From: Octopus sinensis
Lineage: Eukaryota
Length of the DNA stretch: 64,000 nt
NCBI RefSeq assembly: GCF_006345805.1
Contig: NC_043006.1
Location: 82,212,001-82,276,000 of the forward strand
Direction of reading: 5' to 3'
Part shown: positions 6,632 through 62,775 of the stretch, one piece after another
How the letters are laid out: each line of letters begins with the position of its first letter
Position numbering within the stretch: the stretch's first letter is position 1
Translations under genes and position numbers: made by a program
The notes under the pieces: model-generated
The model's input: only the letters and a program-made list of their open reading frames with translations
The model's database searches: none
What the model was told of the DNA's origin: nothing

Positions 6632-6707
<76 letters not shown>

Positions 6708-6819
6708 ATTTAGGAATAGTCATTTTGCCAGTTTAGCCAATAAAAACACACCCACTATATATTTGGTGTTACTTTGCTTCAGCGTCATTCACTTTTTACA
6801 TTAATCTTAATCTTATTTC

Positions 6820-6863
6820 GGCCAGAGTTCTTTCGTCACACTCCTGTGACCTCATCAGTGGTC
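6820..6863 (-). ncRNA. Minimal type-I hammerhead ribozyme motif
   Basis: gacca CUGAUGA g GUCAC aggagu GUGAC GAAA gaacUC uggcc. Confidence 0.7.
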
Positions 6864-7120
6864 CTTTACTTTCTTCTTTCTTATTTGCCTGTCTCTCCTT
6901 ACTAACAGTCAGCCATTTTGTATTTTGTATTCCTATTATATGTGTATATAAACAGGAGATACAAATATTACAGGCACTCCCCCCCACACACTAACTAAAT
7001 ATAAACACACATAGAGGTATACGCATGCGCAAATGAAGACACATACAATAGGAATACAAAATGCAAAATGGCTGACCGTTAGTAGGGAGAAACACGCAAA
7101 TAAGAAAGAAGAAAGCAAAG

Positions 7121-7164
7121 GACCACTGATGAGGTCACAGGAGTGTGACGAAAGAACTCTAGTC
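7121..7164 (+). ncRNA. Minimal type-I hammerhead ribozyme motif
   Basis: gacca CUGAUGA g GUCAC aggagu GUGAC GAAA gaacUC uaguc. Confidence 0.7.
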
Positions 7165-7332
7165 GAAATAAGATTAAGATTAATGTAAAAAGTGAATGAC
7201 GCTGAAGCAAAGTAACACCAAATATATAGTGGGTGTGTCTTTATTGGCTAAACTGGCAAAATGACTATTCCTAAATACAACAATATCTGTTTCAACACAC
7301 GATTTCATATAAAAAATCTTGCAAAACAAATA

Positions 7333-13877: not shown

Positions 13878-13931
<54 letters not shown>

Positions 13932-13972
13932 GAAAGAATGGAGTCGAACGACGATTTAACAAAATTCCTTTA

Positions 13973-14055
13973 TTCTCGACATATGTTTCGAAGACTGCAT
14001 ATTCTCAATTCCGAAGGAATAAAGGGTGCATTATGCCGCCTTCTCATCAGGAAAA
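13973..14055 (-). ncRNA. Type-I hammerhead ribozyme motif
   Basis: uuuuc CUGAUGA GAAGGC.GCAUA...UAUGC.GUCUUC GAAA CAUAUG UC gagaa; element flanked by (TA)n on both sides. Confidence 0.85.
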
Positions 14056-14152
14056 ACAAGGAACTTATGTCAGCATCATGATGAACAAAAACTTTTAGAT
14101 GACTGCCCACACGGAGTCCATAGTGATAATCATATAATCATATAACCATAAT

Positions 14153-49924: not shown

Positions 49925-51349
49925 AAGTATGTAAGAGGGTCCTAGCAAGGCCACTGCGGTCTCTCTTTCAGAGCTTCCTTGCAACTGGCAAACTTCCAAG
50001 AAAACTGAAGGAAGGTAAAATATGCCCTATTCATAAAGGAGGTAGCAGAGCGGAGGTCAAGAACTACAGACCTATCTCTCTCGACATATCTCGACTTTGC
50101 AAAGTCCTTTGATAAAGTCGATCATGGAATGATATGTCACAAACTGCGTGATCTTGGCATAGTTGGAAAATTGGGAGAATGGCTGCATGACTTTCTGAAG
50201 AATAGAAGTCAGGTGGCCACTTCCATTAACACGCAAATAGTGAGCGGTGTTCCGCAGGGCACTGTTTTGGGACCACTACTGTTCATAATGGCCCTCTCAG
50301 ACATGCCCTCAGCCACGCAAATAGCCACGATCACAAGTTATGCAGATGATACAAAAGTTTCACAGGCAATACAGAACCCTGAAGACACTAAGCACCTGCA
50401 ATGTGAGCTGGACGAAATATACAAGTGGGCTGAAAAGAATAGCATGCAGTTCAATGCTGAAAAGTTTCAAGCTTTATACTATCAGCATGCAAAACTGAAT
50501 GCAATACCCAATGAATACACTGGACCGGAGGATTGCAATCCCAGAGGCACAATCAGTGCGTGACCGGGTATTCACATGAGTGATGACGCGACTTTCATGT
50601 ACATGTTGCTAAACTGGCAATGAAATGTAGACGGCTGGCTGGATGGATTCTTAGAACCTTTAGAACAAGAGAACAATAAACCATGATGGTCCTCTGGAAG
50701 ATACTTGTCCTAAGCCACTTTGACTATTGCTCTCAGCTATGGTCACCATCCAGTGTCAAGTTGATCACAGAACTTGAGGCGATACAACGAAGCTACACGA
50801 AGAAGATAGCCTCTGTGCAGCATATGAGCTACTGGGAAAGACTCAAGAGATTAAAGCTCTATTCCCTGGAGCGTAGGCGAGAAAGATATGCCATAATATA
50901 TATCTGGAAGATCCTTGAAGGACTTGTCCCAAACTTTGGCATCGAGAGTCACACAAATGCCAGAACCGGGCGCCACTGCGTAGTACCAATTACTCTAAAT
51001 TTGCCATCAAGATGTAGGACAAGATACTGTGATAGCCTGGGCTTCAGAGGCCCACAGCTCTTCAATATCCTCCCGAAGAACCTGAGGGACTTGCATGGTG
51101 TAGATGCGGATGTCTTTAAAGTAGGACTGGATCTCTTCCTGTCAGGTGTCCCGGATGAACCAACTTCACGGCAGGAGGTGCAGATGAGGGCAGCTGCATC
51201 GAACTCTCTCATGCATCAGATGGCGTTTGCTAAAAAGCACCGTGAGGTAAATAAAATCGTGTAGCAAACCAAATGGCGGTGCCCCAGCATGGCCACAGCT
51301 CATTAGCTGAAACTGGAAAAATCAAAATCAAAATCAAAATCAAAAAATC
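49925..51349 (+). mobile_element. 5'-truncated CR1/L2-group LINE
   Basis: NYRPISL, SGVPQGTVLGPLLF, YADDTK, DYCSQLWSP and SLERRRERY motifs, frameshifted; (ATCAAA)n tail. Confidence 0.92.
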
Positions 51350-51656
51350 AATATATAAATATATATATAATATATAATTAATTAATAAGGGTGAGAGAAT
51401 TAGATACTAATTAATAGTATATCTATTCTACACCAAGTGGCCTAGTGCTCGAGAGAAACCTGGATTATATATAATTTTATAATATATTATAATATTTTTA
51501 CAAAATAAATATAAGAGAGTGGTCACTATATGGCTCACTCTAGCACCAGTTAATCCAATAGGTTTCAACAACAAAAATACATGTTTCCCATGAAAGTCAG
51601 TACGATTGTTAGCTCACACGAACAGGGCAAATAAAAAATAACAAAAATACAGATTA

Positions 51657-51736
51657 TTTGGGACAATTGTTTCGCTATTAATGAATTAAATGTAATTTTA
51701 CTTACAAAAAAATCCACTTGTAGCTCCTCAGCCAAA
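51657..51736 (-). ncRNA. Canonical type-I hammerhead ribozyme
   Basis: uuugg CUGAGGA GCUA...UAGC GAAA CAAUUG UC ccaaa; all three stems intact. Confidence 0.88.
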
Positions 51737-52186
51737 ACTATCTGGATGAAATCCACTCAATCACACGCCAGATTTTATCATAACGATAAATACGCGTGTG
51801 GTTCAATTGATTACATCCGACGTTAAATCCAAATGCCCCAACTAACAGCGCGCCAAATTTTCACGGAAAACAAATACAGCATTTAGAAATAAATGCAGCA
51901 TAATTATATTAATTAATAAGGGGAGAGAATTAGATACTAATTTAATAGTATATCTATTCTACACCAAGTGGCCTAGTGCTCCGAGAAACCTGGATTATTA
52001 TAATATTTTATAATATATTATAATATTTTTACAAAATAAATATAAGAGAGTGGTCACTATATGGCTCACTCTAGCACCAGTTAATCCAATAGGTTTCAAC
52101 CACAAAAATACATGTTTCCATGAAAGTCAGTACGATTGTTAGCTCACACGAACAGGGCAAATAAAAAATAACAAAAATACAGATTA

Positions 52187-52268
52187 TTTTGGGACAATTG
52201 TTTCGCTATTAATGAATTAAATGTAATTTTACTTACAAAAAAATCCACTTGTAGCTCCTCAGCCAAAA
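52187..52268 (-). ncRNA. Canonical type-I hammerhead ribozyme, second copy
   Basis: uuuugg CUGAGGA GCUA...UAGC GAAA CAAUUG UC ccaaaa. Confidence 0.88.
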
Positions 52269-52399
52269 CTATCTGGATTAAATCCACTCAATCACACGCC
52301 AGATTTTATCATAACGATAAATACGCGTGTGGTTCAATTGATTACATCCGACGTTATAATTCAAATGCCCCAACTAACAGCGCCAATAATCTGTATTTT

Positions 52400-53640
52400 T
52401 GCCAAGAGGACTTACTGAAGTGATTCATGATTGTTGCCACGTGATGCCTTTATATGACTTTTAAGCCCGGCCAAGCTTTTGCACATTTTATTATGTACTA
52501 GACAATTATGCTGGCTGGCAGGAGAAACAGGTGCCACCATAAGCACTCTCTTAACATGTCTTTTTAGACCTTCAACTGAAAGGCACATTTTACACACGTT
52601 CTGTTATGAATTTTAATAGCTACATCATTTTTTTATCATGGGTCGATTTCTATGAGAATTTTGATGGCTCACCAAGCCTGCACGACTCAAGCACCTCCGA
52701 CCTCAAACCACACACAAAAAAGCAACACTCTCTCACTCTCCAGAGGTTCCCTCCCCCCTTCTAAGCCCCTTCCTAATTCTGTCATACTTCACTCTCTCCC
52801 TCTCAAACTTTGAACAACCATCATGCACTATCTTCCTCCATTTATCACGGTCTTGTGCCTCCCATCTACTAATTACCAGCTGCAATTCCTGTCTCTATTA
52901 GAGCATTTTTAAAGCAATCCTTAAACCTTAGATTAGGCTTATGCGCCGGTCTCCTGCCATTTTCCAGCTCACCCTACAATAGTTGCTTGGGCAGTCGCTC
53001 ATCACTCATCCTTACCAAATGTCCCCCCCACCTCAAACGTCTTTGCAAAATCATTGACTCTATACTTCTACTGTCACTCCTCTCAAGCACCTCCTCATTA
53101 CTAATGGCTATTTTCCAGTTTAACCCCCCAAATTTTTCTCAAACAGTATTGAGAAATCGTCCCAATTGCCTCACGTGCCTACGGTAAACAACCCCTGCCT
53201 CACTTCCATATTACAAAGATGGGAGGACGCATGTGTTATATACCTTAAATTTAATTTGTGAAGACATATCATGTTGTTTCCACAGACGCCTATCAAGCCT
53301 ACCAAAAGCACTACTAGCCCTGCTGATTTTGTATGAAATTTCATCATCAAGACCAGCAGTGCTCAAGCTTTGACCATTCACGGTTATAAAAGGTTCTACA
53401 TACATCTTGGGGGGAGCGGGCTGGTCATTATAACAGTTTTTTTAGATTGATTGTTAGACCCAATGCTGCACATGCTGCAGAAATCGCATTCGCCATATGA
53501 TGCATATCTTTCTGAGAATGTGCCAACAAATCACAATCATCTGCATACAGAAACTCAACAAGGTGAGAATGCAGAACCTTCGTTTTGGCACAGAGCCTTT
53601 TAAAATTGGACAGTTTTCATGTTGTCCTACATTTTATATA
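52400..53640 (-). pseudogene. RTE-clade LINE relic
   Basis: DDEISYKISRASSAFGRLDRRLW...KFKVYNTCVLPSL*YGSE, followed by decayed C2H2 fingers. Confidence 0.85.
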
Positions 53641-54826: not shown

Positions 54827-54830
54827 TATT

Positions 54831-55808
54831 TTCGTCCTAAAAAACTTTGTATGGATTGAATGGTTACCTCTATGGAAATATATACACACACATTATACAT
54901 ACATGTGTGTATAGATGAATATATAAATACATTTAAATATCTATATAAACTTTTGGGCGATCTTTGTGCTACTTAGAGATAACTTTAGATCTTATTTTCG
55001 TCCTAAAAAACTTTGTGCGGAGTGAAAGGTTACCTGTATGGAAATATATCACACACCATATACATACATCTGTGTATAGATGAATATATAAATACATTTA
55101 ATATCTATATACACTTTTGGGCGATCTTTCTGCTACTTGGATATAGGTCTTATATTCGTCCTAAAAAACTTTGTATGGAGTGAAAGGTTACCTGTATGAA
55201 AATATATACACACACATTATACATACATCTGTGTATAGATGAATATATAAATACATTTAAATATCTATATACACTTTTGGGCGATCTTTCTGCTACTTGG
55301 ATATAGGTCTTATATTCGTCCTAAAACACTTTGTATGGAGTGAAAGGTTACTCTATGGAAATATATACACACACATTATACATACATCTGTGTATAGATG
55401 AAATATAAATACATTTAATATCTATATACACTTTCGGGCGATGTTTCTGCTACTTGGATATAGGTCTTATATTCGTCCTAAAAAACTTTGTATGGAGTGA
55501 AAGGTTACCTGTATGGAATATATACACACACATTATACATACATCTGTGTATAGATGAATATATAAATACATTTAAATATCTATATACACTTTCAGGCGA
55601 TCTTTCTGCTACTTGGATATAGGTCTTATATTCGTCCTAAAAAACTTTGTATGGAGTGAAAGGTTACCTCTATGGAAATATATACACACACATTATACAT
55701 ACATCTGTGTATAGATGGATATATAAATACATTTAAATATCTATATACACTTTTGGGCGATCTTTCTGCTACTTGGATATAGGTCTTATATTCGTCCTAA
55801 AAAACTTT
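54831..55808. repeat. About 160-bp tandem repeat, about 6.1 copies
   Basis: ttcgtcctaaaa recurs at 54831, 54997, 55155, 55315, 55472, 55631 and 55791. Confidence 0.95.
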
Positions 55809-56621: not shown

Positions 56622-57744
56622 GAAAGATAGAAGTCAGGTGGTAGTAGCCACTTCCATTAACACGCAAATAGTGAGCGGTGTTCCGCAGGGACCACTACTG
56701 TTCATAATGGCCCTCTCAGACTGCCTTCAGCCACGCAGAGAGCCAAGTTATGCAGATGATACAAAAGTTTCACAGGCAATACAGAACCCTGAGGACACTA
56801 AACGCCTGCAATGTGAGCTGGACAAAATATACAAGTGGGCTGAAAAAGAAGCATGCAGTTCAATGCTGAAAAGTTTCAAGCTTTATGCTATCAGCATGCA
56901 AAACTGAATGCAATACCCAATGAATACACTGGACCCGGAGGAATTGCAATCCCAGAGGCACAATCAGTGCGTGACCTGGGTATTTACATGAATGATGACG
57001 CAACCTTTCGTGTATATGTTGCTAAATTGGCAATGAAATGTAGACGACTGGCCGGATGGATTCTTAGAACCTTTAGAACAAGAGAACAAGAAACCATGAT
57101 GGTCCTCTGGAGGACACTTGTCCTAAGCCACTTTGACTATTGCTCTCAGCTATGGTCACCATCCAGTGTCAAGCTGATCACAGAACTTGAGGCGATCCAA
57201 CGTAGCTACACGAAGAAGATAGCCTCTGTGCAGTATATAAGCTACTGGGAAAGACTCAAGAGATTAAAACTCTATTCCTTGGAGCGTAGGCGAGAAAGAT
57301 ATGCCATAATATACATCTGGAAGATCCTGGAAGGACTTGTCCCAAACTTTGGCATCGAGAGTTACACAAATGCCAGAACTGGGCGCCACTGCGTGGTGCC
57401 GAGGTCTCCAAATTTGCCATCAAGATGTAGGACAAGATACTGTGATAGCCTGGGCTTCAGAGGCCCACAGCTCTTCAATATCCTCCCGAAGAACCTAAGA
57501 GACCTGCATGGGGTGGATGTAGATGTCTTTAAAATGAAACTGGATCTCTTCTTGTCAGGTATCCCAGATGAACCAACTTCACGGCAGGAGGTGCAGATGA
57601 GGGCAGCTGCATCGAACTCTCTCATGCGCCAAATGGCAGTTGCTAAAAAGCATTCGTGAAGTAAAACCATGTAGCAACACCAAATGGCGGTGCCCCAGCA
57701 TGGCCACAGCTCGTGAGCTGAAACTAGAATCAATCAATCAATCA
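56621..57744 (+). mobile_element. 5'-truncated CR1/L2-group LINE, second copy
   Basis: Closely similar to 49925-51349; ORF 56853-57659; (ATCA)n tail; sits within (TA)n. Confidence 0.92.
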
Positions 57745-57906
57745 TATATATATATATATATATATATATGTTATATATATGTATGTATGTGTGTGTATGT
57801 ATATATATATAACTTATGAACAGGAATATCAACAAATTATTCGTTTAAATTAGCTATGCGGCGTTGTTACTCTCGTGAACGAATAATTTGTTGATATTCC
57901 TGTTTA

Positions 57907-62691: not shown

Positions 62692-62775
62692 TCGGCTGAC
62701 GAGTACGAGCCATCTATATTTACTGCATTTTTTGTAGCTTATTAAAGATGTCCTCGTACGAAACAATTGTACCGA
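62692..62775 (+). ncRNA. Canonical type-I hammerhead ribozyme
   Basis: ucgg CUGACGA GUACGAG...CUCGUAC GAAA CAAUUG UA ccga; all stems perfect. Confidence 0.9.

Follow-up and report, generated by a model that had tools for sequence, protein, structure and literature searches.

The closest described systems are the animal non-LTR retrozymes, which self-cleave, form circles and are closed by a host ligase (PMC7229834), and the Penelope-like elements (PLEs), for which partial tandems, inverted copies truncated at the 5' end and a one-sided tail have been reported (PMC8557442, PMC3846280). Copying of animal retrozymes from circular RNA by PLEs has been proposed on the basis of co-occurrence and of pLTR similarity (PMC7229834; bioRxiv 10.64898/2026.07.22.740005), the second of these sources also arguing for a retrozyme-PLE link, and the origin of the inverted repeats of PLEs was termed undefined (PMC8557442). 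A purified PLE was found to cut both strands of AT-rich DNA and to start at two internal sites bounding the tail; uncleaved RNA was its dominant substrate, and hammerhead mutants left insertion unaffected (PMC11167929). A dimeric fold via stem III has been described for the type I hammerheads of metazoans (PMC4209133), and hammerheads or retrozymes are not mentioned in the accessible part of PMC13282606.

Anatomy of the window locus

The window, that is, the whole 64-kb stretch of Octopus sinensis DNA that was analysed, is a microsatellite-rich part of a 2.72 Gb genome. It carries four hammerhead motifs, and only the interval 51377-52383 has two in tandem. Comparison of the window with itself gave a direct repeat in that interval with a period of 531 and 97% identity, which agrees with the near-identical direct duplication of the preliminary description; the insertion amounts to 1.9 units, and the supposed tandem dimer was found to consist of one full unit, preceded by a 5'-partial and followed by a 3'-partial one. 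The locus contains:

51377..52383, minus strand: main arm of the insertion, with unit positions 345-535, a full unit and positions 1-287; 5'-truncated, with its 3' end at fixed site B
52180..52275, minus strand: hammerhead 1, type I, with a stem I of 7+5 bp, CUGAGGA at 52262-52256, a long-loop stem II, GAAACAAUUGUC and a predicted cut at 52193/52192
51650..51744, minus strand: hammerhead 2, with an intact core, a predicted cut at 51662/51661 and one A absent at 51660, in the 3' strand of stem I
51662..52192, minus strand: cut-to-cut monomer, 531 nt as assembled, 32% GC, no ORF, predicted closed branched fold
51377..51501, minus strand: 126-nt 'tail' between the fixed 3' ends A and B; A (51502) is read through here and B (51377) is the insertion end
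52033 and 51908, minus strand: internal copies of sites A and B, respectively
52385..52401, plus strand: inverted piece of 17 nt at the 5' junction, matching unit positions 5-21, which follow closely on the cut site
51350..51376, no strand assigned: TA-rich target tract fused to end B
52402..53300, minus strand: upstream flank, a decayed LINE-like 3' fragment
50009..51345, plus strand: downstream flank, a separate LINE fragment with an RT domain (RVT_1, E 1.2e-17), outside the element

Each period holds one type I core on the minus strand, with CUGAGGA at 52262 and 51731, a GCUA/UAGC stem II with a long structured loop, and GAAACAAUUGUC with the palindromic ACAAUUGU. The stem II of both hammerheads and the two predicted cuts, 531 nt apart, stand as first described, and stem I of hammerhead 1 was found to have 7 bp plus a 5-bp extension in place of the 5-6 bp given earlier. 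Stems I and II of hammerhead 1 were predicted with probabilities of 0.99-1.0. The claim of a complete hammerhead in each unit held for both cores and failed at stem I of hammerhead 2, in which one A is deleted and the predicted probability as assembled is 0.06 (0.15 for stem II); values of 0.98-1.0 were predicted for its counterparts in 3/3 other family loci over the same span. Hammerhead 2 as assembled is predicted not to fold. Compared with a natural 535-nt copy, the window unit has four single-base deletions, and the length of 531 may be partly an assembly error: it is correct as a spacing in this assembly, whereas the family mode is 534-535 nt (67/160 units). The longest ATG frame in the circularised unit has 19 aa in sense and 26 aa in antisense, in keeping with the earlier statement that no credible ORF is present, and the whole 64-kb window gave no Rfam matches at the gathering threshold.

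For comparison with the 17-nt inverted piece, the best match was of 6-10 nt in 32 other single-arm loci and was longer only in three loci with short A arms. The upstream flank, which we take to be RTE-like, is cut about 35 nt before the microsatellite tail seen in most of 11 other copies; with these last ~35 nt and the tail absent, target DNA was lost on the upstream side. Because the first hammerhead-bearing unit is 5'-truncated, release of a monomer would need transcription starting upstream of 52262. The locus had also been put forward as the best candidate for an active one, which may hold among the window's four hammerhead motifs and does not hold genome-wide: at least two perfect hammerheads on one arm were found in 41/58 family loci, and the window locus has one. 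It is an ordinary, somewhat damaged copy, and nothing singles it out as the active locus.

The window locus and the locus L031, 22 kb apart, share two substitutions (unit 449A and 42T; window 52279, 52151 and 51621) that are absent from the other 56 loci, through sibling insertion, conversion or polishing cross-talk. A 565-nt contig in run X5, a run whose RNA nature is a guess, covers the unit (window 51826-52374); its length equals 535 + 30 and resembles a closed graph cycle at word size 31, and it was set aside as evidence because a DNA array yields the same length.

The three helices of the hammerhead pair in 93% of cells in 11 related sequences (relatedness uncontrolled, structure drawn from the window copy), with two-sided changes at 10/13 pairs; the paired percentage was reached by 0/500 shuffles, and slid controls gave 31-44%. 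In these sequences, the hammerhead pairing exceeds chance. For stem III, a hairpin was predicted to be unstable (+2.4 kcal/mol), whereas two copies would form a stable 8-bp duplex (-6.4 kcal/mol), in agreement with the suggestion that its palindrome permits a double hammerhead and with the dimeric fold of PMC4209133. The monomer was predicted to fold closed, with its ends held by stem I (z of -4.35 for the linear form), and in circular form the window unit scored z = -5.6 and a 535-nt copy z = -8.1; fold energy fails to pick the strand (z of -5.6 in sense versus -5.4 in antisense). The preliminary reading as retrozyme-like, with a possible circRNA, is supported at the level of the family by its tandem non-coding units, type I hammerhead, closed predicted fold and dimer-type stem III. 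The motif TTTGGCGCGC, at window 51848-51857 on the minus strand and followed by TTTGAA in family copies, presumably resembles an E2F/CHR cell-cycle promoter element; it precedes the hammerhead, and the 5' partial unit of the window insertion has lost it by truncation.

Family size and insertion anatomy

The unit gave 231 matches, mostly 95-99% identical, in the 40 places scored of 1030 candidates. Exact junctions with TA numbered 582 for end B (unit 287) and 252 for end A (unit 161), and read-through B sites numbered 954, with reversed controls giving 0 in every case. One hammerhead variant has 345 exact copies in the genome, and a less strict hammerhead pattern that keeps this stem III gave 4965 matches versus 14 in the control, a set that takes in relatives at 62-90% identity. 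The family is dispersed and multicopy, ranges from monomers to multimers, and consists of non-coding units of 32% GC in head-to-tail arrays with no LTR organisation. Judged from genomic sequence, it is a young, high-copy, non-coding hammerhead repeat family (a non-LTR retrozyme) with at least 582 insertions.

Insertions were scored in 58 loci picked blind to their ends (40 of the 1030 candidates, with a bias towards long arrays, and 18 from listings) and in end-found samples that consisted of the first 30 of the 582 B junctions and the first 30 of the 252 A junctions and partly overlap the 58 loci; local duplicates (L243, L246 and L108) were removed before counting. In the 58 loci, 5' ends are scattered and 3' ends lie at A or B, 126 nt apart, with (TA)4 next to 43/47 B ends and 43/44 A ends (86/91 in total). 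Head-to-head inverted doublets were found in 38/58 loci, and 36 of these were A+B, none A+A and none B+B; of the two others, one has an odd end and one runs into an N gap. All doublets counted from the end-found samples, in which one end is fixed by the search, were also A+B (21/21). The same pairing was found in a 73%-identical relative (L251) and in two loci of a second family, whose ends lie ~36 and ~157 nt past the cut; end spacing is 115-125 nt in the relative and the second-family loci.

The arms mostly meet at a few-base overlap or filler, and symmetric doublets meet at palindromes. Neither arm is contained in the other in 18/57 A+B doublets, and in six the arms have no common sequence, as would be expected if each arm was primed separately. 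These non-contained arms speak against a general origin of the inversions by fold-back copying of a completed arm, which was rejected, although later deletion could blur the pattern. Symmetry was seen in 7/21 short doublets, five of them starting at unit 17-60, a post hoc observation on small numbers at junctions that favour palindromes. A third 3' end at unit 35, as in the second family, gave 0 exact matches with one pattern, and 5' ends could not be shown to be over-represented at the cut site. The flanks are mostly (TA)n, in which a target site duplication is unreadable, and at the window locus target DNA was lost. The 5' truncation, partial tandems and inverted 5'-truncated copies of the PLE type are all present, and mobilisation of this type is very probable. 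This insertion anatomy, absent from the preliminary description, is the main signal.

Like the animal non-LTR retrozymes (PMC7229834; bioRxiv 10.64898/2026.07.22.740005), the family is built of non-coding, low-GC units in tandem, every one of which carries a type I hammerhead, and has a dimer-dependent stem III, a highly structured monomer and PLEs in the same genome; its unit of 535 nt compares with 170-400 in PMC7229834 and lies inside the range of 51-972 in bioRxiv 10.64898/2026.07.22.740005. For retrozymes, the accessible text of these sources describes neither twin fixed 3' ends nor a preference for (TA)n targets nor inverted doublets. The family differs further in that no extended pLTR homology was found for it in the PLE-bearing loci examined. 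Its hammerhead topology is type I in tandem units, and the type III hammerhead in LTRs by which plant LTR retrozymes are recognised is absent. In twin priming of L1, two primings give a head-to-head inversion; the family would share both traits and differs in that its start sites are both fixed in the RNA and its arms usually cover the same template region, which would call for displacement or for another RNA molecule from that source.

Endonuclease-bearing PLEs (Neptune, Poseidon and Naiad; PMC8557442, PMC3846280, PMC11167929) share with the family 5' truncation, partial tandems, an inverted 5'-truncated copy, a tail at one end, microsatellite or AT-rich targets, and a hammerhead with a palindromic stem III upstream of the 3' ends; unlike them, the family has no ORF, a tail of 126 and not 30-40 nt, and up to 17 units per arm. 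The non-autonomous PLEs of Chlamys, such as MRC1 (PMC8557442), are likewise non-coding, multicopy, head-to-tail and, as the family very probably is, PLE-mobilised. Their 3' ends are similar to those of their autonomous partner, and their clade has no canonical hammerheads (PMC8557442), whereas in the family the hammerhead is conserved and similarity to a partner extends over at most 10 nt. On the DNA level, the family has the features of a non-LTR retrozyme and behaves as a non-autonomous PLE. The family itself, its 126-nt tail, the A+B rule and the sharing of haplotypes between arms were not found in the open literature, taken without subscription papers, Repbase/Dfam and bioRxiv supplements.

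Template, mechanism and alternatives

When the two arms of each doublet were compared, 39 doublets gave differences at 8 marker sites in all, versus a mean of 196 (minimum 129) in 2000 random pairings, and units diverge by 0.5-0.6% inside a locus versus 1.8% between loci, with 36 haplotypes in the 58 loci. Twenty variants are fixed in one locus and absent from the rest, being 'private' only among these 58 of hundreds of loci. Across 39 loci, 123 variants occur in all or all but one of the units, whereas 112 are confined to a single unit and 18 are shared by a subset; single-unit variants seldom recur between loci (7/105). Cut sites are crossed by 89/94 arms in the set chosen blind to ends and by 19/29 and 14/28 arms in the end-found samples; arms of 13 and 17 units exist, and up to 17 cut sites are crossed. 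The cut-site junction is exact in 222/263 cases versus 174/211 at a control span, and thus no scars of template jumps are seen. Repeated single-unit bottlenecks together with scarless multimers would make a circle the simplest template, and a circular RNA is considered the probable template for the family on these variant patterns. The 18 subset variants (for example, one in 4/12 units of L035, and in L066 a mirrored occurrence on the two arms) are hard to reconcile with one homogeneous circle unless later conversion, multimeric templates or polishing errors are assumed, and arm-to-arm conversion in inverted repeats could also homogenise the arms. Variants common to units five positions apart were seen in L035, L041 and L054, for which multimeric templates or assembly effects could account.

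The reading preferred here, with a probability of about 0.6, is that the family of the window insertion was mobilised in trans by a PLE RT and GIY-YIG endonuclease, probably from circular monomer RNA. Arrays would be transcribed, paired hammerheads would excise a monomer whose fold holds the ends together, and a host ligase would close it to a circle. The PLE protein would cut both strands of (TA)n, and each of the two DNA ends would prime reverse transcription on one RNA source, one end at site A and the other at site B. The RT would circle the template repeatedly, copying up to 17 units, and short microhomology would join the resulting two cDNAs head to head. Failure or resection of one side would leave a single 5'-truncated arm, as in the window. 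The use of uncleaved RNA by a PLE in vitro counts against a circular template, and the 126-nt tail, compared with 30-40 nt in published PLEs and ~40 nt in PLE families A and E of this genome, counts against the preferred reading, as does the negative search for extended pLTR homology in 88 PLE-bearing loci.

The same PLE-driven insertion could also use a long uncleaved multimeric array transcript as template, the hammerhead being slow or protein-gated and circles uninvolved in copying. This possibility is doubtful, although it would explain the scarless crossing of cut sites equally well and would accommodate the subset variants and their mirroring on both arms; uncleaved RNA was accepted by a PLE in vitro (PMC11167929), poor cleavage is known from minimal hammerheads of PLEs (PMC4209133) and 8/9 frog retrozyme dimers were uncleaved (bioRxiv 10.64898/2026.07.22.740005). 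From such a template, arrays could only shorten in each round, yet the 13- and 17-unit arms exist, the 36 homogeneous haplotypes would require repeated single-unit bottlenecks, and the rarity with which single-unit variants recur also speaks against it. Local turnover of some kind is indicated by subset variants with gradients (L236), as would be expected if the units were remnant terminal repeats of an autonomous PLE that expanded locally as a satellite by unequal crossing-over, the scenario of bioRxiv 10.64898/2026.07.22.740005; this is improbable, given that both doublet arms hold several units of one haplotype with exact A or B ends, that hundreds of young loci are dispersed and that no ORF-bearing copy was found in 88 PLE loci. 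It is highly improbable that the duplication at the window locus is an assembly artefact: single-base indels are frequent at the locus, which differs from the natural copy by 10 small indels and 6 substitutions, and no contig spans it among the contigs of four runs, but the insertion ends at site B like hundreds of others, and its pieces differ by substitutions, two of which are also present in the neighbouring L031.

Mobilisation in trans from a circle can be carried further, and tentatively, to a scheme in which two PLE RTs would copy one 535-nt ribozyme circle at once, each primed by one end of the (TA)n break and each locked to A or B, and in which PLE family E, with only the end motif CACCCTTAT in common, would supply the enzyme to a superfamily that numbers thousands of elements in the genome. 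If true, this rule alone would account for the arrays of retrozymes, the inverted repeats of PLEs and their one-sided tail. The family leaves countable footprints, namely the near-strict rule of one end each, one haplotype per insertion and scarless multi-unit arms; together with intact candidate enzymes in the same genome and the published in vitro assay (PMC11167929), these make two questions directly testable, whether PLEs copy animal retrozymes, whose life cycle is unproven, from circular RNA and how the inverted repeats of PLEs arise.

Candidate PLE partners and neighbouring repeats

The genome holds 5029 GIY-YIG candidates, of which 150 were scored, and RT + GIY-YIG ORFs of 775-789 aa. 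Families A (781 aa), B (775 aa) and E (784 aa) have an RT plus a C-terminal GIY-YIG, and 11/13 listed copies of family E are without stops. Copies of families A and E have two alternative end points ~40 nt apart, both joined to (TA)n, and among 12 loci examined for family E, 4/4 inverted ones combine a proximal and a distal end. The distal end of family E and site B have TCACCCTTAT in common, a 10-mer with p = 0.034 by shuffling, among AT-rich ends and noticed post hoc, and similar motifs occur at the B-type ends of seven relative loci. A CX4CxxC motif precedes the nuclease in family E and resembles that of Neptune/Nematis (PMC8557442). Given the p value of the shared 10-mer, family E is only a lead as the candidate enzyme partner.

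No extended homology of the unit to a pLTR was found in 88 PLE-bearing loci (50 + 20 + 18, with 150/5029 GIY-YIG candidates scored), no PLE ORF was found attached to family arms, and the unit has no RT/GIY-YIG ORF such as defines an autonomous PLE. An autonomous parent was also sought by DNA homology, and the matches in L107, L108, L115 and L251 were rejected as separate insertions of the family or its relatives. Hammerhead-like cores with UUGAnAA replacing CUGAnGA are present in families E and A (L272-L282 and L105), as is an upstream ORF of 437-479 aa, with no Pfam match for E and one weak sub-threshold match for A.

Several other repeats were observed in the window. At 62696-62770 on the plus strand lies a hammerhead with the same ACAAUUGU stem III, which belongs to the second large family (3256 candidates); that family has 3' ends ~36 and ~157 nt past the cut and a tail that is 68% like unit positions 176-293, and this hammerhead adjoins a fragment that we take to be mariner-like. 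A single hammerhead with the stem III ACAUAUGU is located at 13930-14150 on the minus strand, with (TA)n on either side, and an inverted doublet of the same family was found in L103. The interval 6698-7286, between TA tracts, is an inverted doublet with 248-nt arms (96%) that has CUGAUGA...GAAA without a palindromic stem III. One LINE fragment is present twice, at 50009-51345 and 56644-57768, 6.4 kb apart and ~95% identical, and a 160-bp tandem repeat of 6.1 copies with 94% matches occupies 54827-55808.
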